Source: a virus. From it: a stretch of 64,000 nucleotides of DNA. Positions 2,746 through 57,319 of the stretch are shown piece by piece. Location of the stretch: UHGV virus genome UHGV-0112899. One strand, written 5' to 3'. The translations under genes were made by a program, and so were the position numbers. Every line of letters starts with the position of its first letter. Positions within the stretch are counted from its first letter, which is position 1. The notes beneath the pieces are model-generated. The model worked only from the letters and a program-made list of their open reading frames with translations. It made no database searches and had not been told where the DNA came from.

Positions 2746-2940
2746 CAAAGTTTCCCCAGGAACGTTACGCAAAAGTTGATGAGAGCAAAGAGTTCAATGC
2801 CCAGCTCAAACAACGCCAGGACAGTGAAAAACAGGGCATATAGCAACCCAATTTCTGTACCGGATTGCTGGTGGATTGCACTTATTGCGACAAGCATCAT
2901 GACCTCCTGATATAGCGTCTGAAAAAAAGTATCTTCATTT

Positions 2941-2974
2941 TGTGTTAGAAAATCAATTTTGATTTTCTAACACA
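2941..2974. promoter_or_regulatory. 34-bp perfect palindrome, putative repressor operator
   Basis: tgtgttagaaaatcaa tt ttgattttctaacaca in a divergent intergenic region; half-site recurs at five other loci. Confidence 0.5.
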
Positions 2975-3017
2975 TTTGATCAACCATAGCGGCGATGTAG
3001 ACAAACCGGGTATTTCT

Positions 3018-3593
3018 ATGAAGCAAAGCTATTGGGAGAAACAGACACAAAAAGCCCTGCAAAAACTGGCTGATCCGAAATGGCGGGAGGAACAAAGGGC
3101 AAAGCGTCTTCAGCAAGCTCAACGCCAGCAGCAGCGTGCGCGAGAAAAAGCCGCATCGCCTGAATATCGGCAAAAGAAAATTGAAAAAGCGAAGCAATAT
3201 GAACAGCGAAGAAAAGAGAAGGCCGCTTCTGCTCCTGTCAAAAAAACTCGCGCGTCACGCGGCCTGAAAGGCAGAACACTCACAGCAGATGAGCGCCGGA
3301 TACAAACTGCCATCGGTGCTCTCCCCTGCATTGCCTGCCATATGCACGGACAGCATAGCCCTGTGGTATCCCTGCACCACATCTTCGGGAGAACAGCAGA
3401 GAACGCGCATAAATACGTCCTCCCTTTGTGTAAATGGCACCATCAACACGCAGCGCCAGCAGAGATCCGCGAGCAATACCCCTGGTTGGTTCCTGTTCAT
3501 GCTGATGGAAAAATAGGCGGCAAAGCAGATTTCAGGCGGCACAATGCTGATGAAATGACGTTGTATCAGATGGTGACTGAATTAATAAATTAA
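3018..3593 (+). CDS. HNH-motif protein with basic N-terminus, Ref-like (DUF968-like)
   Basis: Lys/Arg/Gln-rich N-terminal half, then CIACHMHG...HHIFG...CKWHH Cys/His cluster; ATG at 3018. Confidence 0.45.
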   Translation: MKQSYWEKQTQKALQKLADPKWREEQRAKRLQQAQRQQQRAREKAASPEYRQKKIEKAKQYEQRRKEKAASAPVKKTRASRGLKGRTLTADERRIQTAIGALPCIACHMHGQHSPVVSLHHIFGRTAENAHKYVLPLCKWHHQHAAPAEIREQYPWLVPVHADGKIGGKADFRRHNADEMTLYQMVTELIN

Positions 3594-3607
3594 TTTTCTA
3601 ACATTTT
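3592..3607. promoter_or_regulatory. operator-like motif copy
   Basis: aattttctaacatttt matches the dispersed TGTTAGAAAAT core. Confidence 0.35.
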
Positions 3608-3924
3608 AAGTTGAATTGTGAGATCCACCGTTGTACATTCACAACCGATTGGTACACCGGTCAACTTTTTGAGACAAACCGTTTGGTTTTTCGTATGATT
3701 GCCGCCGCCATACCAATGGCGGTGCAATATAGGTGGCTGAAAAGCCCCCGTTGACTCACGGTGTTCCAGCCTTTATTGCGCCGCCACCAGACCGTGGAAC
3801 AGTCGATGGCGGCTCCGAAAGCAAGGAGTCACTACACTATGAACAGCTACTGTCTTTTCCCATCACTCGTTGTCCGCCACTCACGCGATAATCTGCATTC
3901 TTTACTCGCGCTGGGGGTGTCAAA

Positions 3925-4621: not shown

Positions 4622-5562
4622 TGAATCTGTCCATCTCTCAAAAAGCGACAATGACCAGCATTGAGATCGCGGAACTGGTGGGAAGTCGTCACTCTGATGT
4701 TAAACGCAGCATCGAAAGACTTGTTGCTAAAGGAGTTATCCAACATACGCCATTGGCTACAGTTGAGAATAATCAATCACTTAGCCCTAATAAATACACA
4801 AAAGCCTATTTCTTCGAAGGCGAACAAGGCAAGCGCGATAGTATTATCGTCGTCGCGCAGCTCTCTCCGGAATTCACCGCCCGGCTGGTGGACCGCTGGC
4901 GCGAACTGGAGAATGTCAGGGGACCGTTAAAATCAAAAGCCGAAATCCTGGCTGAAATGGCGCAAATGCATCTTGAGCATGAACGCAGGATCAACGCCGT
5001 AAATGCCCAGGTAGCCGAGGTATCGGCACAAGTGTCCAGGGTCACCGAAACACTTGAGCAGATCAAGAAAGGCAATATTCCAGAAGGCTACATTGGCTAT
5101 CGCCAGTTGGCGGCAAAATGCGGCCTGACTGAAGCCAAATGCCGCAACCTGGTCAACGCTTACCGGATACCCACTGATACGCATGAGTTTTTAACTCCCG
5201 ACGGTTTGCTTGCGCGACGCTCCATTGTGGCCCTGGCCCCCTTCCGGAAAGCCTTTAAGCAGGTTATGTCGGAGGCAGAACCACGTAACAAACGCTGGTA
5301 TCATCCCAGGATGGGGCTATTTCAGGCCATTCACCATCCTGTGCCTGAAAGTCCAAAGGCAAACCTGTCGTTGCATACCGCCAGAGAGAAGATTAAAACA
5401 GGGTATGCAACCGTATGCCGTCGAGCATCCTGGCCTGAAAGTGTCTGGGTATGGCCCGAAAGAGGCTCACGGAAAAACTGGCGCACCATTCGCGACGGCA
5501 AGATCTGTGCGATTGATTTACAGCCAGAAGATGTAGCAGCGACCGACTGGATTGTTAGTTAA
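4621..5562 (+). CDS. Rha-family phage regulatory protein / antirepressor-like
   Basis: N-terminal SIEIAELVGSRHSDVKRSIERL (Rha-type); paralog at 55705; extra C-terminal domain present here. Confidence 0.65.
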   Translation: MNLSISQKATMTSIEIAELVGSRHSDVKRSIERLVAKGVIQHTPLATVENNQSLSPNKYTKAYFFEGEQGKRDSIIVVAQLSPEFTARLVDRWRELENVRGPLKSKAEILAEMAQMHLEHERRINAVNAQVAEVSAQVSRVTETLEQIKKGNIPEGYIGYRQLAAKCGLTEAKCRNLVNAYRIPTDTHEFLTPDGLLARRSIVALAPFRKAFKQVMSEAEPRNKRWYHPRMGLFQAIHHPVPESPKANLSLHTAREKIKTGYATVCRRASWPESVWVWPERGSRKNWRTIRDGKICAIDLQPEDVAATDWIVS

Positions 5563-7052: not shown

Positions 7053-7267
7053 GTAAACAAACTGAAGTTTTATGTTACAAAAACAAACATCTACGCCAAA
7101 ATGACTTAGGCCAAATTCAGCGCGAATAAAAAATTCAAAAAAATTGTTGACACTATTCTGGAAATCACAATCTGGACAAAATCCATTGCGCAAACGGCTC
7201 CCGTTGAAGGTTCTTTTGACGACTAACTTTCAGCCGATGCGCGGTAGGGAGTCATAACGCCAAAGCA

Positions 7268-14367: not shown

Positions 14368-14415
14368 GCAAAACTGTGTTAGATAATTGAGTTTTATTTT
14401 CTAACACAGTTTTGC
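14368..14415. promoter_or_regulatory. 48-bp near-perfect inverted repeat with operator core
   Basis: gcaaaactgtgttagataa ... ttttctaacacagttttgc between the spike gene and rdgC. Confidence 0.5.
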
Positions 14416-19589: not shown

Positions 19590-19770
19590 TCTGAGACACA
19601 TTTGAGAAAGAATTGAATTTTATATGAGAAAACAAAATAAGACCAGAAGTTAGATAGCGTAAAAAGCATCAAACTAGAGACGTAAAAGAGACACAAAAGA
19701 GACTTAGATGATACATGATGTACCCATGATACCCTTTTGAGACAAATCAGAGACAAATATGAGAAGTAAG
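19590..19770. repeat. parC-like centromere: two clusters of ~11-bp GAGAC(A/G) iterons
   Basis: agagacgtaaa/agagacacaaa/agagacttaga and ttgagacaaatc/agagacaaata/tgagaagtaag flanking a central segment, upstream of parM. Confidence 0.5.
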
Positions 19771-19827: not shown

Positions 19828-20112
19828 ATGAGTGCAATAGCGACCAGTGACACAGTTTGTTCTGGTCATGGAGGATTCCCTCCGCGACCTGTAGCAGAAA
19901 CAGTTTCCTGGTTTACCGTAAATGGAAAGCCAGTAGTTGTAGATGGGGGAGCGTTCCCCAGCCATACAGACGGAAATAGCGCGCACCCCGGATCAGCCGT
20001 ATCGACGCGCTCATGGTTTGCAATAGGCGGGAAAGGAGTTGTTTGTGTGGGAGATCCCCTTTCTTGTGGCTCAGTCATCGCCAATGGTGAGGCAATTTTT
20101 CAGGTGTCATAA
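19828..20112 (+). CDS. PAAR-like spike-tip protein
   Basis: 94 aa; VGDPLSCGSVIANGEAIF and CSGHGGFPP motifs; AGGAGG RBS. Confidence 0.4.
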   Translation: MSAIATSDTVCSGHGGFPPRPVAETVSWFTVNGKPVVVDGGAFPSHTDGNSAHPGSAVSTRSWFAIGGKGVVCVGDPLSCGSVIANGEAIFQVS

Positions 20113-20906
20113 TGCTTGATTCAATCGCTGAAGTTAATGCATTCAAAATTCTAAATGCATCAGGCACAACTACGCCTGCATCTATCACGCTAAGTAAAAC
20201 AGCGTCATCCAATGCCAGTTCTCTGGAAGAGAATATCCAGGCTCTTATCCTGAAGGATAAAGCATACCCGGCGTCGGTGGTTTCATGGGTCAATCAGCTT
20301 TCTGTCTTTTCAGAACAACTGAAAACTGTCAGTGCAGAAGCAACCAATTTAGCCGACTCGCTGTCTCCGTATACTTCGCCAACTGAATTACTTCAGATGA
20401 AAATTGGCTGGGAATGTTACGTCAAAGGTAATGAGTTATCTCCTGCGCCAGAATTTGCTCTCGTAACAGTTATGGGAGATACCCTGCATCCGCAATCGCT
20501 TATTGACGCGTTGGCAGCATTTGAACTGGTGCCAATCACTTCAGCCATGACCGCTATAAATGCAAAAGTTCAGGCGTCAAGCGGGGAGGCTTCAGGCAAC
20601 GGAAGTTCCACCGGAACAACACAGCAACCAGCACTAACAGAAGAAGAGATCAAAGCACTAAAAGACGCAGTGGAAGCAGCAACAGAACAAATAAATGCAA
20701 TAAACAACACGAGCAGTAGTCTCTCAACACTTGTACAGCAAGTTAAGGACTCTACCGGAAAAGCCAAACAGGGACTGGAGAATGCTGTAGCTATTACGTT
20801 AACCGGTTCTCTACTGGGCGATGAAGTAATGAGTCCGGCAATCAGTTTGATCATGCCACAAGGTGTGATCGATGCGCTCCAAAGCAACACTAAAAAGGAA
20901 CCATAA
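20112..20906 (+). CDS. hypothetical protein
   Basis: 264-aa ORF coupled (TAATG) to the PAAR-like gene. Confidence 0.45.
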   Translation: MLDSIAEVNAFKILNASGTTTPASITLSKTASSNASSLEENIQALILKDKAYPASVVSWVNQLSVFSEQLKTVSAEATNLADSLSPYTSPTELLQMKIGWECYVKGNELSPAPEFALVTVMGDTLHPQSLIDALAAFELVPITSAMTAINAKVQASSGEASGNGSSTGTTQQPALTEEEIKALKDAVEAATEQINAINNTSSSLSTLVQQVKDSTGKAKQGLENAVAITLTGSLLGDEVMSPAISLIMPQGVIDALQSNTKKEP

Positions 20907-20976
20907 CTACACCATTTTAGCCCATAAATGGTTACAAATTGGTACACATATCACACCAACAAAAAATCTGAAGAGG

Positions 20977-21435
20977 ATGGTTTTGAAAAAGATAATTTTG
21001 ATAGTAGTTGCGCTTTTAGCCATTTATGGAATTTACCGTACTACGGCGGCAGTTATCGATCACATCAGGTATATCCGTTCCCTGGAAGACTCAAAATCAC
21101 AACTTGAAAGCGAGAACAACACGCTTTCTACCGCATTGCAGTTAAGTGAAAAATCGCGATCTGCCATGATGGCTGAAAACGAAAGAATTAAAACACTGGA
21201 GAAGGAGTACCAGCGCAAAACAGCAGAACTGAATACCAGCCTGATCAAACAACGGGAGGAAAGCCAGAATGAAATTACTCGTCTTGAAACTGCTTTACGC
21301 AATGCTGGGGTTAATGATGTGCGTGTGCCTGATGACGTTATCAGGATGCAGCGGGAACGGGCAAAAGAAATCAATCAGCGTGCCAGTGAAAATTACCGTA
21401 GAAGCCACCAGCAAACCACAGGCAAATCTGATTGA
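20977..21435 (+). CDS. Rz-like i-spanin
   Basis: N-terminal transmembrane helix followed by coiled coil; contains the embedded Rz1-like ORF. Confidence 0.5.
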   Translation: MVLKKIILIVVALLAIYGIYRTTAAVIDHIRYIRSLEDSKSQLESENNTLSTALQLSEKSRSAMMAENERIKTLEKEYQRKTAELNTSLIKQREESQNEITRLETALRNAGVNDVRVPDDVIRMQRERAKEINQRASENYRRSHQQTTGKSD

Positions 21436-21601
21436 TTATACCCCTTGCATAGTGCCAGAGGACACGCCTGTGCTGTTAAACAAGTATCCGGCATACACTG
21501 AACAGTTATTCAGCACTATCGATGAATGCAACCAAAGAAACGCACTGAATAACCAAAGAAACAGGGAGATTTGGGAAGGGAAGGGGGATCAAGGCTCCTG
21601 A
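21269..21601 (+). CDS. Rz1-like o-spanin lipoprotein
   Basis: +1-frame ORF overlapping the Rz-like gene; lipobox LSGC. Confidence 0.5.
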   Translation: MKLLVLKLLYAMLGLMMCVCLMTLSGCSGNGQKKSISVPVKITVEATSKPQANLIDYTPCIVPEDTPVLLNKYPAYTEQLFSTIDECNQRNALNNQRNREIWEGKGDQGS

Positions 21602-22047
21602 AGCCAGATGTCCTGGCTGTCAGCTTCTTCGAAACCGTGACAGACGTTAAAGTCACTCAAGCGATACTGGCGCTGACGGCCTCTATTTCGCTCATGCCAA
21701 TGCATATATCCACCAGCAAATGCCAGCGGACAATCGCTATAGTCGATGTAGCCAATACCATTACCCAAACGCGCTTCGCGCGCCCCGGCTTTCCAGGACA
21801 GCAGAAAAGAGTCACGATCTGCCAGCATGACTACAAAATCATCCGGATCGCCTATGCAGTGAAGAATGCCTGCCTTGCATAACTGTTTGAGTGCCTTAGA
21901 CTGACTCAGGATGTCTTCACCGTAATACTGAAAACAATCATCAACAATAGCGGGATAGCCAGCGGGTGGATTCAGTCTGGTTGGTATAGCTGACGCGATA
22001 GCCAGCATTAAACGATATTGTGTTTTCGATGGGTTCGCGTGACTCAT
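21589..22047 (-). CDS. hypothetical protein
   Basis: ATG 22047 after AGAGGA. Confidence 0.45.
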   Translation of the reverse strand: MSHANPSKTQYRLMLAIASAIPTRLNPPAGYPAIVDDCFQYYGEDILSQSKALKQLCKAGILHCIGDPDDFVVMLADRDSFLLSWKAGAREARLGNGIGYIDYSDCPLAFAGGYMHWHERNRGRQRQYRLSDFNVCHGFEEADSQDIWLQEP

Positions 22048-22058
22048 GTTTCCTCTAC

Positions 22059-22451
22059 TCACTGTCTCCATGCATTTTTCAGCTCCGGAATATCAGCCAT
22101 TTCAACCAGCTTCCGAAGCCCCGCGCTGACCTTCCCATTACCAACCGCAGCAAGCCAATCCCTTACTGACTTCGGCATATAAAGAGTGGTCGTTACAGGA
22201 TCTTCCACTCTTACAGGCGTGCCAATTTGAGGCCACTTAACAGATACCAAAACGTCAGAAGGCGGGGTAAGCGCGGGAACATTAAGAATAGCCTTTCCTG
22301 AATGGAGAATCACGATTCGTTCAGCCAGGGAAAGAATGTCTCTTTCAGTAAGGATTGATGACAGTTGAGCTTCTACAAGGCATCTGCTGCTTGTATTCAG
22401 AGAATGGCTTTTAGCACCATTTTTGTATGAAACGAAGATCTTGTACGCCAT
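22059..22451 (-). CDS. hypothetical protein
   Basis: 130-aa ORF adjacent to the operator cluster. Confidence 0.45.
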   Translation of the reverse strand: MAYKIFVSYKNGAKSHSLNTSSRCLVEAQLSSILTERDILSLAERIVILHSGKAILNVPALTPPSDVLVSVKWPQIGTPVRVEDPVTTTLYMPKSVRDWLAAVGNGKVSAGLRKLVEMADIPELKNAWRQ

Positions 22452-22453
22452 TT

Positions 22454-22531
22454 GTTCTAATGTTTTATGTTAGAAAATTAAGATTAAACCATACTAACAC
22501 AAGATTGTTAACGAAAATTATTTTTCTAATG
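22454..22531. promoter_or_regulatory. cluster of three operator-like motifs in a divergent promoter region
   Basis: gttctaatg (22454-22462), tgttagaaaat (22469-22479), ttttctaatg (22522-22531). Confidence 0.45.
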
Positions 22532-22610
22532 CTATTGACTAAATAACAAAGTGAGTATTGTCACCTCGTCAAAAGAATCTTCACGCCGCGCCCGAATTTA
22601 GGGTTTAACC

Positions 22611-24308
22611 GTGAACAAGAACATTGAGCCAGCTCGTAAGCGCGAGCGCGAGATTATGAATCGGGCGGCAAGCGTCATGGCTATGACCGTCGATCCAACC
22701 ACTGATGCTGCCGGTAACATGATTACCGACAACGAAGTGATGATGGCTAACCTGGAAAAAGCTATCCAGAAAGAGCCAATGTTTGAAGGCGTTGGACCAG
22801 AAGCAGCTCGCCAGATCATTGGTAGCTGGGCCATGTCTATTCATGAATACAAACGCCAGCATGGGCATTATCCGGCAAGCGATGTATTAGCCAACGCCCA
22901 TGTAGCACTTGAGCGCCTGATGATGGAGTCCGCTAAAGAGACGCATGAAGGCGCTGGCAAAGCCATGTTTGAATCAGTAGCCAAGGACATGCGCACCTCC
23001 GATGGTGTAATGAAGGTTGCACAATATGCCGCACTGATCCTGCCTGCTTCTCTCGGCGCAGCCACCAGCGACGCATGTACGTTTATCCCTTGTGATCGTG
23101 ATGAAACCAATATTTACGAGCTGACCAACGTTGCTGGTACAAAATTCGGTACATTCGAGCAGGGCGATGAACTGAACATGCAGTCTGCTGGCGTGTATTC
23201 GCAGATGAAACGCCTGTACATCCTGACCGAAAAAGGCGATGGCAGCAAAACCACCTTCCAGTTTGATATCCAGAACTTCGAAGGCCAGGCCTGCCCGCTG
23301 CGCCAGGGCTACAACAAACTGCTGATTAACCGCAAACCGTCCAAAGTAGATGATGGTGACGGCAACCTGTATTTCAACGACAAAGACGTCAACGGCAACT
23401 CTTTCTCTGCTACAGCAAAAGTTAAATACGATACCGGCGTTATCGATATCACCTTTAATGAAGCACCAGCAGAAGGCACAGAAATCGCTGTTCAGGTTGA
23501 AATCAACATTGAACGCAATCCGAGCCTGATACCAGTCATTAACCAGTCCATGCGCAATTACGCCCTGCGCCCGTCGCAGTACGTGATCGCATCCGAACAT
23601 ACGGTTATGACAGCATCTGACCTGAGCCGTGAACACGGACTCGAACTGGCAGCATTGCAATTCTCCGCAATGCGCAACTGGATTTCCCACGAAATCGATA
23701 TGATGCGCCTGCGCACTCTGGTATTCCACACAGTTTACGGTCGTGAATTTGATGTGGCACTGCCAGAAGCGCAGAACTACGAATCGTGGGTTGGTTTAAT
23801 TCGCCATGTAGTGAACGCGCTGTCACAGGACATGGCTGACCGCACCCTGACTACCGGTATCCGTGGTGGCTTTGCTGGTGGCGATGCTGCTAACTTCCTG
23901 CGTTCCTTACCGCCGCAGCACTTCCAGTTGGCACCGGGCTATGTACAGTCGCCGTACATTCAATACATCGGCACCCTGTTTGGTTCCATTCGTATCTACG
24001 AAGTGCCGAAGCCTATCTGCAAACAATTCCAGGAACATGGCTACGACTTTGGCCTGGACGACATCTACTTCTATGGTCGTGGCGAAGGCATTGGTAAAGC
24101 TGGCCTGGTCGCTGGTGATGCTGTGCCTGCTATTCCGTATGTCCACGAAACAAATCCAGCCCTGGTAAACCGCACCACTCTTTGGGGTACAGCAATCAAC
24201 GATGTGCATCCGCGCAACGGTGAGAACTATTTCACTCGCCTTCGCCTGACACGTTCGAAAGAAGGTGCGATTGACATGTTGAGCGGGCAAATCAACGAAA
24301 AAAAGTAG
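22611..24308 (+). CDS. putative major capsid protein
   Basis: 565 aa; followed by an Ig-like small protein and a terminator; assignment by size and context only. Confidence 0.35.
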   Translation: MNKNIEPARKREREIMNRAASVMAMTVDPTTDAAGNMITDNEVMMANLEKAIQKEPMFEGVGPEAARQIIGSWAMSIHEYKRQHGHYPASDVLANAHVALERLMMESAKETHEGAGKAMFESVAKDMRTSDGVMKVAQYAALILPASLGAATSDACTFIPCDRDETNIYELTNVAGTKFGTFEQGDELNMQSAGVYSQMKRLYILTEKGDGSKTTFQFDIQNFEGQACPLRQGYNKLLINRKPSKVDDGDGNLYFNDKDVNGNSFSATAKVKYDTGVIDITFNEAPAEGTEIAVQVEINIERNPSLIPVINQSMRNYALRPSQYVIASEHTVMTASDLSREHGLELAALQFSAMRNWISHEIDMMRLRTLVFHTVYGREFDVALPEAQNYESWVGLIRHVVNALSQDMADRTLTTGIRGGFAGGDAANFLRSLPPQHFQLAPGYVQSPYIQYIGTLFGSIRIYEVPKPICKQFQEHGYDFGLDDIYFYGRGEGIGKAGLVAGDAVPAIPYVHETNPALVNRTTLWGTAINDVHPRNGENYFTRLRLTRSKEGAIDMLSGQINEKK

Positions 24309-24449
24309 CAGTGGCGAACGTGTCAGTTTCACCAACGGCAATTGAAGTAAACGAAGGTGAAACTATCGCCGCAAGCACTTCAAAGACACGAAAAACACCC
24401 AAAAAGAAGTAAGACAAGCCCCTGAATAGGGGGCTATATGGAGGAAAAA

Positions 24450-24728
24450 ATGGCTGATATTCAGGTAACTATTACCCCACCAAATGCGACAGATAAAACT
24501 TTCACTGTCGAATCCGATCATCCGGAAATTGTGAGTGTTGATGGAACCACATGCACCGCAGTATCTGCTGGTACTGCGGTACTAACCATCAAAACTACAG
24601 ATGGAAATAAAACAGCAACATGCACTGTAACGGTTAATGAAGCCGCAGTAAGTGTCAACTCTGTCAGCGTTGATCCGTCAACCAAAGAAGTGACGGTAGG
24701 TGACAGCTTCACGGTCGGCGAAGCCTGA
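24450..24728 (+). CDS. Ig-like (Big_2-like) domain protein, possible decoration protein
   Basis: Thr/Val-rich beta-sandwich-like sequence; GGAGGA RBS; terminator immediately downstream. Confidence 0.45.
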   Translation: MADIQVTITPPNATDKTFTVESDHPEIVSVDGTTCTAVSAGTAVLTIKTTDGNKTATCTVTVNEAAVSVNSVSVDPSTKEVTVGDSFTVGEA

Positions 24729-24730
24729 TA

Positions 24731-24765
24731 AAAGCCTCCCCATGCAAATGGGGAGGCTTCTCTCA
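24731..24765 (+). terminator. rho-independent terminator
   Basis: stem agcctcccca/tggggaggct with tgcaaa loop followed by T-rich tctct. Confidence 0.5.
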
Positions 24766-24793
24766 TCCGCTCGATAAAGAGGAAAAGAGCAGC

Positions 24794-26449
24794 ATGAATA
24801 AAATTGGTTTTTCTGTTGGTCAGGCGGCGGGCGTTGCGGTAGCGGACGTAAATGCCGATGCTATTCTGTCCAACACATCTGGCGGTGCTTCCGTCTTTGC
24901 CGGGCTGGTGATTTCCCGCAGAGGAGCACCAGGCAAGGTTTTGCAGGTTACAGCAGCCAACTATCAGAGCGTGTTAGGTTCACCTCTTCACCCGCGCACC
25001 GGGGCCGCATTTGAACCATATCGCCACGTTGAACGCGCAGTAAAAGGCGGCACCGGTTATGTGGTTCGCGTATGCGCAAAAGACATGAAAGTACCGGGCA
25101 TTGCCGTTTCTGTTCAGGCCAGGTCGAAAAGCACCAAGTCAGCAAAAACTCTGCAAATTGCTCCGACCGAAGCAACGGTAAATATCGGCGATACACTGAC
25201 CGTTCGTGCCGTTTCTGGAGCCACTTCTCCGGTAACTTTCGCTGCAAGCGAAACACCTGAAATTTCCGGCAGTGAACTGGCTATTTTCTACATAAAGGAC
25301 GGTGATGCTTCGACAAACCGCACGTTATCACTGACCCGTGAGGACGAAGAAAATGACCTGTTCACTCTGGAACTGAAAGAGACACAGACCGATGGTTCTG
25401 TAGAAACTTTGGAAAGCTACCAGGTTTCTTTCGATCCGGATGCAACGAACGATATGGGCCAGCCAGCATGGATTCCTGCGTTGTTAGAAAGTCAGTCCTC
25501 CAGGCTTGGAGCTGTACTGGCTGATGGTGCCGAAGACTCCGCTCACTTGCTGACTTTCGAAGATGTAGCGTTTGAAGGCGGTACAGATGGCGATCTGTCC
25601 TCAATTGACGCTGATGATTATCTGAAAGCGTTAGAGGTTCTCGAAGCGTCAGAAGTTAATTATACCGCACTGCTTTCTATGGGCTGCTACGACGCATCCG
25701 TGCTGGCAAAAATTAATTCGCTGGCAGAAGACGTTCGCGTGGATATGTTCTACGACCTGAAATGTGCTCAGACTGGTGATAACGCTATCGCGGAAGCTAA
25801 ATCACATGGTTTCGGCAAATCCCACCAGGCTGCACGTTATCACTTCCCGTACTCATGCCGTGACACTTTCAGCGGTATGAATGTGGTTTACGGAATCAGT
25901 TGTGATGCGTTCGTGGCAAAAGCGAAAGGCGTTGCGCTTGTGTCTGATGTAGGCGGCTGGCATTACGCCCCGGCTGGTCTGTCTCGCGCAATCATTGATC
26001 GCCAGAACATCACCAGACTCTCCGGAATTGGCACAATCGATCGTGAAGCGTATGTGACCGCTCGTATTAACCCTGTAAGCGTTGCAGCGGATGGTTCTGT
26101 CTACATCGACGACTCCCTGACGACATACAGCAAAAATAACTATCTGCGATTCCAGCACGTTTCATCACTGATGAATGCAATTGCCCGCAATTTCTATGAA
26201 GTTGCTCAGGCAATCAAGCATGAACCTGATGGCGTTACGCAGGAAAGTCTGACTAACGCACTGACAGATCTTCTGGACCGTTTTTATGCGGCTGGTGCGC
26301 TGGTTACACCACGCGATGAATCTCAAGGTTCTGACCCTTATGTGGTCAAGGTAACTCAAAAAGACATCGACTTGTGGGAAGTGGAATGGTCCGTGTGCCC
26401 AACAGGCACTGCCCGTCGAATCCTCGGCAAACCAATCCTGATGCGTTGA
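24794..26449 (+). CDS. virion structural protein, possibly tail sheath
   Basis: 551 aa with internal Ig-like insertion; AGAGGA RBS; assignment tentative. Confidence 0.3.
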   Translation: MNKIGFSVGQAAGVAVADVNADAILSNTSGGASVFAGLVISRRGAPGKVLQVTAANYQSVLGSPLHPRTGAAFEPYRHVERAVKGGTGYVVRVCAKDMKVPGIAVSVQARSKSTKSAKTLQIAPTEATVNIGDTLTVRAVSGATSPVTFAASETPEISGSELAIFYIKDGDASTNRTLSLTREDEENDLFTLELKETQTDGSVETLESYQVSFDPDATNDMGQPAWIPALLESQSSRLGAVLADGAEDSAHLLTFEDVAFEGGTDGDLSSIDADDYLKALEVLEASEVNYTALLSMGCYDASVLAKINSLAEDVRVDMFYDLKCAQTGDNAIAEAKSHGFGKSHQAARYHFPYSCRDTFSGMNVVYGISCDAFVAKAKGVALVSDVGGWHYAPAGLSRAIIDRQNITRLSGIGTIDREAYVTARINPVSVAADGSVYIDDSLTTYSKNNYLRFQHVSSLMNAIARNFYEVAQAIKHEPDGVTQESLTNALTDLLDRFYAAGALVTPRDESQGSDPYVVKVTQKDIDLWEVEWSVCPTGTARRILGKPILMR

Positions 26450-53902: not shown

Positions 53903-53917
53903 GCTAAAAGCTAGCTT

Positions 53918-53950
53918 AATTTTCTAACACAGTGTGTTTTTATACACTGT
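53918..53950. promoter_or_regulatory. operator-like motif with adjacent inverted repeat
   Basis: aattttctaacacagtgtg plus IR acagtgt/acactgt. Confidence 0.4.
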
Positions 53951-54101: not shown

Positions 54102-55064
54102 GTGAGTATTTTAAATTCAGTTTCAGTTACTTTCAACACTTCTGAGTATAAAAACAACACTGAATACCACAAAAAAATCAAAGGTCATCAGTTGAGTTTT
54201 TTTGCTCGTCATAGCGGTTTTCTTTCCCCTTCACATAGCGCCATTATTGCCGAGTTCGCCAACCTGGCAGGAGCTACCGATGAATACATGATCCGTCGCT
54301 CATATGCGGATATGTCCGAGATTACAGGACGCAGTATTTCTACTGTGCGCCGGGCATTTGCCGAAGCGACGAAGTGCGGAATGCTTGTTAAGCAGCATCA
54401 GGTAGCGAATAACAATGCTCAGGTGTGTAACGTGTACCGGTTTACAACACAATTTCTCCACTTCATTCATGTAGCAATGGAGATAGGGAGTAAGCAGGGC
54501 ATCAAATTTGCCAACGCCACAAAACTGGTTAAGCAGTTGATTTCAAAGGTTCGTTATTTTTTTGAAACTGGGAACCCCCTGTTCAAATTGAACAAGTCCC
54601 CCCATGTTCAAAATGAACAGCCAATAGAAAATAAGAGTCACTCTATAGCCAAAAGAAGAGAAAGATCATGCGCGGTTCAGCCAAAGGCTTCACCAGCAGA
54701 TAGTTCTCAAGCGGATAATGGGGGGCTGGATAAAAAACCAGTAATCAGGGAAGAACATACCAACCACTGCCTGGCGGCGGCAAAAGCGAGAGCTGCAAAG
54801 CGTCGTTCAGATGAGGGGCACGCAAAACGGCAGGCTCTGTATCGTACCGCTGAAAAGCTGGCAAAAAAATTTGCATGGATACGTAGTGCCGCTACAGCAG
54901 TGAATAAGCCTAAACAATCCAGTGCCCTGGATTTCTCAATGGATTATTCTGGCTCCCAGGGGTGTGCAACCATTGGTGAAGCCTTTGACCTGATGAAACA
55001 GCGTGGCTATCGGTCTGAATTTGACCGGGAAGACTGGTCAATTCCGGAGGGCTTTCGGGGATGA
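54102..55064 (+). CDS. HTH-containing protein, possible replication initiator (RepL-like by position)
   Basis: 320 aa; HTH-like SISTVRRAFAEATKCGML; flanked by operator-like motifs; GTG start uncertain. Confidence 0.3.
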   Translation: MSILNSVSVTFNTSEYKNNTEYHKKIKGHQLSFFARHSGFLSPSHSAIIAEFANLAGATDEYMIRRSYADMSEITGRSISTVRRAFAEATKCGMLVKQHQVANNNAQVCNVYRFTTQFLHFIHVAMEIGSKQGIKFANATKLVKQLISKVRYFFETGNPLFKLNKSPHVQNEQPIENKSHSIAKRRERSCAVQPKASPADSSQADNGGLDKKPVIREEHTNHCLAAAKARAAKRRSDEGHAKRQALYRTAEKLAKKFAWIRSAATAVNKPKQSSALDFSMDYSGSQGCATIGEAFDLMKQRGYRSEFDREDWSIPEGFRG

Positions 55065-55121
55065 TGTTGCGATTGACTGTACAATAACCGTGCGGCGGGA
55101 ATTTCATCGCTCGAAAATGTA

Positions 55122-55221
55122 TGTTAGAAAATTAAATTGATGTTTCTAATCAAGAATGTATGATTTATATCGTCACTAAAAAACAGCATCTGATAAAAAT
55201 TCTGTTGATCTTTCTAATGTT
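55122..55221. promoter_or_regulatory. cluster of three operator-like motifs
   Basis: tgttagaaaattaa (55122-55135), tgtttctaatc (55141-55151), tttctaatg (55211-55219). Confidence 0.45.
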
Positions 55222-57132: not shown

Positions 57133-57319
57133 GCTCCGAATGAAAAAAGAGCAATAACTATGTTGAGAATGTGATTTCTATTACACCAAACATTATTAAA
57201 CGGCATTCATCTTTAACTTTATTCAATGTATTATCTAACAGAAAAGTTAAGTTGCGCTAAGTTAATGATAACACTGGTTATTATTTGTTTGCGTTATTTA
57301 TTTGAGAAAAGAGAAAGTT

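Follow-up and report, generated by a model that had tools for sequence, protein, structure and literature searches.

UHGV-0112899, the 64,000-nucleotide stretch of viral DNA analyzed here at its full length (the window), is a D6-like plasmid prophage of Escherichia coli and a relative of P1. Positions 20000–26000 share 79.6% identity with Escherichia phage D6—a P1-related plasmid prophage whose record names genes after their P1 counterparts, and of which the window matches roughly 12.7–76.7 kb. Positions 21400–23000 are 99.6% identical to the 90-kb E. coli plasmid NZ_AP027414, one of 121 plasmid records that match this interval; these are non-mobilizable and come from E. coli, Salmonella, and Shigella. 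The subject of this study is the intergenic gap at 22452–22610, which separates a minus-strand gene pair (21589–22451) from a plus-strand capsid gene. Its length, 159 bp, agrees with the approximately 160 bp given by an earlier sequence-only reading of the same DNA. In D6 terms, the flanking genes are orf52 and orf53, both hypothetical, and orf51, which encodes the major capsid protein (P1 gene 23).

21589–22047, minus strand: orf53-like gene, 152 aa, ATG at 22047 behind GAGGAA, unknown function, phrog_8101
22059–22451, minus strand: orf52-like gene, 130 aa, unknown function, phrog_7830
22611–24308, plus strand: major capsid protein gene, homologue of P1 gene 23 and D6 orf51, opening a rightward late operon

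The hexamer TTCTAA, or its reverse complement TTAGAA, occurs in the gap at 22455 (+), 22470 (−), and 22524 (+). The sequence-only reading had described three operator-like copies in both orientations; the count and the orientations stand, and the copies prove unequal (−11, 24.6, and 16.2 bits, respectively) when scored against the motif to which the hexamer belongs. By sequence, the gap offers a single solid site, a second that is possible but weak, and a look-alike, set among the candidate promoter elements listed below.

22452–22462, plus strand: copy 1, a look-alike, TTGTTCTAATG, overlapping the 5' leader and start codon of orf52
22463–22482, minus strand: copy 2, predicted C1-type operator of high confidence, 20-mer CTTAATTTTCTAACATAAAA, with the core ATTTTCTAACA running from 22478 to 22468
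22483–22491, minus strand: putative extended −10-like element TGGTTTAAT
22506–22511, minus strand: putative −35-like hexamer TTAACA
22517–22536, plus strand: copy 3, candidate weak or auxiliary operator, ATTATTTTTCTAATGCTATT, with the core TTTTTCTAATG at 22521–22531
22535–22540, plus strand: TTGACT, a −35-like hexamer 15 bp upstream of TATTGT
22541–22561, plus strand: putative D6-type late promoter of the capsid operon, consisting of the box AAATAACA (22541–22548), 7 nt, and the −10 TATTGT (22556–22561)

When each TTCTAA was set in its context, a longer family emerged, (T/A)TTAATTTTCTAACA(C/T)A, with the consensus TTTAATTTTCTAACATA and the core ATTTTCTAACA. Seven exact copies of the core are present in the window against 0.07 expected, a number reached in none of 100 shuffles. 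The shorter words do not exceed chance: TTCTAATG occurs 5 times (2.6 expected) and TTTCTAA 17 times (10 expected). Both were dropped as definitions of the motif, as was TTAGAAAAT with one mismatch, likewise not above chance, and the 11-mer core was used together with a 20-column weight matrix. This matrix was trained on 15 sites, all outside the gap, and then used to score the three copies; in shuffled windows, sites of at least 20 bits arise 0.03 times per window and sites of at least 15 bits about 0.9 times.

Copy 2 scores 24.6 bits with a matrix that had not been trained on it, and its TTAGAAAAT at 22470–22478 reads ATTTTCTAA on the minus strand. Conservation was assessed in D6, Salmonella-type plasmids, two metagenomic contigs, and a Klebsiella contig, gathered through homologues of orf52, and in a further 21 IMG/VR contigs found by a pattern from the conserved capsid leader. 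The stretch TGTTAGAAAA within copy 2 is invariant in seven diverged loci, the Klebsiella contig included, where columns average 58% identity, and all 23 unique variants of the region keep it unchanged.

Copy 1 does not match the motif: the 20-mer at 22448–22467 scores −11 bits. Nor is it conserved: it varies freely, with CGTAATG, TTTAACG, or ATTAAAT in relatives and CTCTAATG, CCGTAATG, TTTTAACG, or ATATTAAA at this position among the variants. Its arrangement with copy 2 also argues that it is not an operator, because the two are convergent, opposite to the paired operators of this phage. Those pairs have a fixed geometry of two abutting divergent 20-mers, minus then plus, TGTTAGAAAAT-N8-ATTTTCTAACA, seen in the window (2938–2977, 14372–14411, and 55117–55156), in the closest complete plasmid, L006 (2720–2759 and 21844–21883), and in D6 (64111–64150 and 80704–80743); this regularity suggests that a repressor dimer binds at paired sites. 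A bivalent operator of the P1 type, in which copies 1 and 2 would converge and overlap by 5 bp, was considered and rejected on the same three grounds: copy 1 fails the motif and is unconserved, and the phage's own pairs are divergent. A partner for copy 2 in the divergent geometry (22483–22502) scores below 7 bits and is unconserved.

Copy 3 lies between these extremes. Its 16.2 bits are marginal taken alone, given the null of about 0.9 sites at this level, and its counterparts score 11.5 bits in D6, 14.9 bits in the Salmonella type, and 7–9 bits in the more distant loci L015, L017, and L018. Across the 23 variants its core reads TTTTTCTAATG, TTTTGCTAATG, TTTTACTAAAC, TTTTACTAATG, TTTTCTAAAAG, or TTTGCCAAAAG, according to lineage. 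The final two T's of copy 3 are the first two bases of TTGACT, a geometry on the −35 hexamer identical to that of the strong operator at 2958–2977 on TTGATC; in P1, the operators Olpa, Odmt, Oc4, and Oc1e similarly overlap their −35 hexamers by 1–3 bp. Thus, the label operator-like suits copy 2, a member of a dispersed family, and fails for copy 1, with copy 3 marginal and lineage-variable; the earlier proposal of three sites acting cooperatively does not hold in that form.

Directly upstream of copy 2 lie conserved elements resembling an extended −10 and a −35, from which we infer a leftward promoter for orf52–orf53 with a predicted start. The pattern TGnTT(T/A)AAT is kept in seven of seven lineages, and the −35-like column reads TTAACA, TTCACA, TTATCA, or TTATTT in relatives. 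The spacer between TTAACA and TTTAAT is 17 bp, and an alternative −10 hexamer, TAATCT, runs from 22486 to 22481. The operator core begins 4 bp downstream of the extended −10, so that a repressor bound at copy 2 would cover the predicted +1 at about 22476; the ATG of orf52 follows about 25 nt past this start. Because copy 2 overlaps the predicted −10/+1 region of this conserved putative promoter, the genes for the 130-aa and 152-aa proteins are most likely C1-repressed early genes.

Turning to the capsid side, the element at 22541–22561 belongs to a pattern, AAATMACA-N8-A-N3-T, with 10 occurrences in the window where 0.51 would be expected; a fuller form is AAAT(C/A)ACA-nnnT-nnn-(T/C/G)AnnnT. 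The copies start at 7162, 11086, 19786, 22541, 31115, 38628, 43268, 47034, and 51153 on the plus strand and at 57177 on the minus strand. All ten lie 30–140 nt upstream of a late operon and are co-oriented with it; by position, these operons correspond to mat, gene 7, upfC, gene 23, pmgB/sit, R, lydA, ddrB, prt, and lysozyme homologues. The pattern recurs at orthologous places in D6, and in the alignment of relatives the block TTGAC-AAAT-ACAA-GT--TA is conserved. As in P1 late promoters, a TAnnnT-type −10 and a conserved element at about −22 are common to the late operons, and an activator of the Lpa family is encoded by the complete relatives, its gene lying outside the window. A 9-bp inverted repeat like AAGTGACTT was not found, the box AAAT(C/A)ACA being non-palindromic. 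The D6-type late promoter thus appears, from its sequence, to be a variant of the P1 kind and not the P1 sequence itself.

The hexamer TTGACT, of which TTGAC is invariant in relatives, is absent from the other nine late promoters, and possibly forms, with TATTGT, a weak sigma-70 promoter overlapping the late promoter. In the P1 record, LP23 is predicted at the place equivalent to 22541–22561, and a predicted sigma-70 promoter overlaps it. Since the capsid gene carries an ordinary late promoter, it needs no local activator. The suggestion that one of the two unknown genes might be a late-gene activator is therefore not borne out: the capsid operon has the same pattern as nine other late operons, the Lpa homologue is encoded elsewhere, and neither protein is Lpa-like (BLASTP E values of 1.7 and 14). 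The evidence points instead to orf52 and orf53 as targets of the repressor and not regulators of the capsid operon.

Three other candidates for shared late elements were set aside. The TTAGAAAAT palindromes were rejected as Lpa boxes, the P1 late boxes being AAGTGACTT-like and the palindromes lying at early-gene promoters; AAGTGAGTA at 22549–22557, a P1-like late box in appearance, is not repeated elsewhere, the shared box being AAATMACA; and TTGACNAAATNACAA is not enriched. Separately, the capsid 5' leader at 22566–22610 (GTCAAAAGAAnCTTCACGCCGCGCCCGAA..TAGGG.TTAACC) shows much stronger conservation than the promoter region preceding it, and this holds even for the distant contig L017. A search of the leader and gap against Rfam returned no family, and the predicted RNA fold is ordinary (z −0.34).

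The identity of the probable binder is suggested by where the motif occurs. The strong sites elsewhere in the window, together with one operator-like site at 7068–7087, are as follows, with gene names given by position on the D6 map.

2938–2977, minus then plus, abutting 20-mers: paired operator upstream of the open reading frame (ORF) at 2976–3593, the D6 ref homologue by position; D6 site at 76632
3589–3608, plus strand: operator downstream of ORF 2976–3593, ahead of the first icd/ant-type region; D6 counterpart at 75975
7068–7087, minus strand: operator-like site of 18.6 bits at a leftward simB-like gene; D6 counterpart at 72197
14372–14411, both strands: paired operator directly upstream of the hrdC/dmt-type operon; D6 pair at 64111–64150; equivalent of P1 Odmt
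53915–53934, plus strand: operator upstream of a repL-type gene; D6 counterpart at 22462; compare P1 OrepL
55117–55136, minus strand: operator ahead of the second icd/ant-type region, with a weak partner at 55137–55156; D6 site at 21262; compare P1 Oc4

At a threshold of 12 bits, the 28 kb of the closest plasmid that extend beyond the window contain 11 more sites, and D6 contains 19. In D6 and the closest plasmid, the motif stands 14–33 bp upstream of c1 and 73–92 bp upstream of lpa (P1 Olpa lies 71–87 bp upstream of lpa); it is also found upstream of repL, ref, hrdC/dmt, and pdcB and ahead of both icd/antirepressor regions. The sites therefore fall at promoters of immunity, early, and replication genes (c1, lpa, repL, ref, dmt, and c4-ant), as C1 operators do in P1, and the motif resembles those operators in being asymmetric, present in many dispersed copies, and related to their consensus, ATTGCTCTAATAAATTT.

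Searches of the window with P1 proteins (tblastn) returned no homologue of C1, Lpa, Coi, or PacA; in the closest plasmid, c1, lpa, pacA, and pacB are located in the 26–28 kb beyond the window. There, a C1 homologue is encoded at L006 13373–14410 (annotated "phage repressor protein"), with 21% identity to P1 C1 over 241 aa (BLASTP, E 1e-7), and an Lpa homologue at L006 17317–17709, with 34% identity to P1 Lpa (E 3e-16). The corresponding D6 genes are orf1 ("similar to P1 gene C1") and orf4 (annotated Lpa-like). Because the sites match the C1 regulon of P1 and the relatives encode both C1 and Lpa homologues, we infer, by analogy, that the motif is the operator of a D6-type C1 repressor.

The interval 7068–7182 has the same layout as the gap: the operator-like site faces the simB-like gene, and a late promoter (7162–7182) 75 bp away faces a mat-like gene. 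Two marginal matches of about 14 bits, at 19618–19637 (−), at the start of a ParM/StbA-like partition gene, and at 57226–57245 (+), near the lysozyme late promoter, are sufficiently explained by chance at that score.

The two proteins themselves offer few leads. Neither belongs to a Pfam, NCBIfam, or PADLOC family, PHROGs places both only in families of unknown function, and sequence profile searches of solved structures returned nothing meaningful. The AlphaFold2 model of orf52 (pLDDT 76.7) has no fold match, and that of orf53 is unreliable (pLDDT 48.5); structure prediction, which the sequence-only reading had put forward as a check, thus gave no recognizable regulatory fold for either the 130-aa or the 152-aa product. 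The C-terminus of orf52 (TLYMPKSVRDWLAAVGNGKVSAGLRKLVEMA) has a strand-helix-helix pattern that, on visual inspection, resembles a ribbon-helix-helix motif. Its alignment to a hand-typed ribbon-helix-helix set is in register (pairwise P 0.005, probability 7%), but Pfam gives no match, and we treat this motif as a lead only. Relatives of orf52 are all close (at least 53% identity), and all stand beside the capsid gene of D6-like elements.

The orf53 family is small, with 23 clusters among 1.8 billion representatives; in it CHG is invariant (CHGF nearly so), as is G-x2-H (residues 113 and 116). Distant orf53 homologues occur, without an orf52 partner, in clusters of small co-oriented genes near genes for Ref-like RecA-dependent nucleases, a neighborhood that fits an early-gene role for orf53. 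In three unrelated metagenomic contigs, orf53 homologues lie within 1–2 kb of PF16786 genes (L040, 1012–1452 and 1659–2306; L041, 2380–3024 and 4001–4450; and L042).

Taken together, the gap probably consists of two back-to-back promoters of different temporal classes, as is usual for a plasmid prophage of the P1 type. We propose that the leftward sigma-70-like promoter (TTAACA, 17 bp, TGnTTTAAT) drives orf52–orf53 and that a C1-type master repressor, encoded outside the window, binds 22463–22482 over the predicted start. The lysogen would then keep the two genes silent, and induction or infection would switch them on at an early stage along with lpa, repL, ref, hrdC/dmt, and the antirepressor regions. 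The capsid operon would be read from the late promoter at 22541–22561, presumably activated by the Lpa homologue. As lpa carries a C1 operator, C1 would repress lpa and, through it, withhold activation from the late promoters, so that its control of the capsid operon would be indirect only. The uncertain step concerns copy 3, which abuts TTGACT and lies about 54 bp, or roughly five helical turns, from copy 2. Here, C1 might damp a basal rightward sigma-70 promoter (TTGACT-N15-TATTGT) or aid the strong site by cooperating with copy 2, either of which we regard as possible but rather doubtful.

Several observations weigh against this account. A consensus scan of 22300–22750 found no sigma-70 promoter; the proposed −10, TTTAAT, has no usual A at position 2; TAATCT, TAATTT, or TAACAT could serve as the hexamer in its place, which leaves an uncertainty of about 10 bp in the start; and orf52 has no clear Shine–Dalgarno sequence. 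The late box differs from P1's 9-bp inverted repeat and sits 2 bp further from the −10. C1 is assigned as the binder by analogy and location only, the C1 homologue has diverged far from its P1 counterpart, and Lxc, the P1 co-repressor, is reported to be absent from D6-like elements (PMC6799933). Finally, copy 3 could be a chance match in an AT-rich stretch, since 7% of mononucleotide shuffles of the 159-bp gap attain 12 bits.

The best surviving alternative, which we consider unlikely, is that C1 represses the capsid operon directly, with copies 2 and 3 cooperating by looping out the intervening DNA to shut both divergent promoters, a cooperative switch in the sense of the sequence-only reading. 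The 2-bp overlap of copy 3 with TTGACT, in the manner of 2958–2977 and of the P1 operators on −35 hexamers, speaks for it, as do the 11.5- to 16.2-bit site at this position in three lineages and the sigma-70 promoter predicted over LP23 in P1. But copy 3 is marginal, its core varies and is lost in L015, L017, and L018, the spacer from TTGACT to TATTGT is just 15 bp, and copy 1 provides no site. Direct repression is, moreover, not required, because late promoters need an activator anyway.

It is improbable that a regulator other than C1 binds the motif—either orf52, autoregulating as a ribbon-helix-helix-like protein on TTCTAA-N9-TTAGAA, or another phage regulator. The register match of the orf52 C-terminus would accord with such a role, and copies 1 and 2 do form a 6-bp inverted repeat. 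A long shot is that orf52–orf53 would form an unrecognized C1-regulon module confined to D6-like elements, in which orf52, a ribbon-helix-helix protein, acts once derepressed on the capsid late promoter or its own, and a C1 loop from 22463–22482 and 22517–22536 silences both promoters. If orf52 did bind the capsid late promoter, head-gene expression would have a second tier of control. Least credible is the view that the copies are chance AT-rich words with no regulatory role, to which the unenriched short words, the failed copy 1, and the marginal copy 3 lend some color, but which is refuted for copy 2, an exact 11-mer far above expectation and invariant in diverged relatives whose flanks vary.

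Plasmid prophages of the D6-like kind are common in E. coli and Salmonella, and the resulting scheme provides a working map of their regulation. Its operator and late-promoter consensus sequences, both unlike those of P1, are usable for annotation and for predicting immunity specificity, although they may already have been published. It also assigns two conserved but uncharacterized genes to the early class under repressor control, which narrows the search for their role; this might lie in host takeover or DNA metabolism, given that distant orf53 relatives adjoin genes for Ref-like nucleases.

In P1, C1 operators are 22 dispersed asymmetric 17-bp sites with the consensus ATTGCTCTAATAAATTT (PMC8546580), and the ten C1 operators in the P1 record NC_005856 yield the same consensus. 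The D6-type sites are likewise dispersed, asymmetric, and AT-rich, share the TCTAA core, and overlap putative −35 or −10 elements. In both systems, they stand at c1, lpa, repL, ref, dmt/hrdC, and c4-icd-ant, with nearly equal distances between site and lpa, and a C1-family repressor is present. They differ in sequence, (T/A)TTAATTTTCTAACA(T/C)A agreeing with the P1 operator at only 7 of 11 core positions, in the repressors, which are only 21% identical, and in the geometry of paired sites: the bivalent Oc1ab of P1 consists of two convergent sites overlapping by 6 bp, whereas D6-type pairs are abutting and divergent (TGTTAGAAAAT-N8-ATTTTCTAACA). P1 has no orf52–orf53 unit and no operator beside gene 23.

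P1 late promoters combine a −10 TAnnnT with a 9-bp element at −22 and are activated by Lpa (PMC10695390); examples from NC_005856 are LP23, AAGTGACTT-TCAA-TAAAAT, and LPsit, AAATGACTA-CTCG-TAGAAT. Like LP23, LPsit, and LPpac, the D6-type promoters have a box at a fixed distance from nAnnnT and generally no −35, and they serve the same late operons, including gene 23, in elements that possess an Lpa homologue. The P1 box is A(A/T)(G/A)TGACT(T/A), whereas the D6-type box, AAAT(C/A)ACA, has no evident inverted repeat, and the distance from the start of the box to the start of the −10 is 15 nt in the D6 type versus 13 nt in P1. None of the P1 late promoters examined contains the AAAT(C/A)ACA pattern.

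The orthologous region of D6 (NC_050154, 54075–54232), whose record annotates no regulatory sites, contains the same genes, an operator, TTTGGTTTTCTAACACAAAT, of 23 bits, and the late promoter AAATCACAAAGTAGGTATTGT. It differs in having about 80% nucleotide identity and a lower-scoring copy 3. At copy 1, D6 has AACTCTAATGA, a sequence similar to the P1 operator (12 of 17 positions) and not to the D6-type motif; the stretch concerned, ATAACTCTAATGATTTG, lies at 4679–4695 of the D6 locus L001 (about 54216–54232 of the record), and the resemblance may be chance or a P1-type relic. As a whole, the gap follows ordinary P1-style regulation with different operator and late-box sequences, and with no new regulatory principle.
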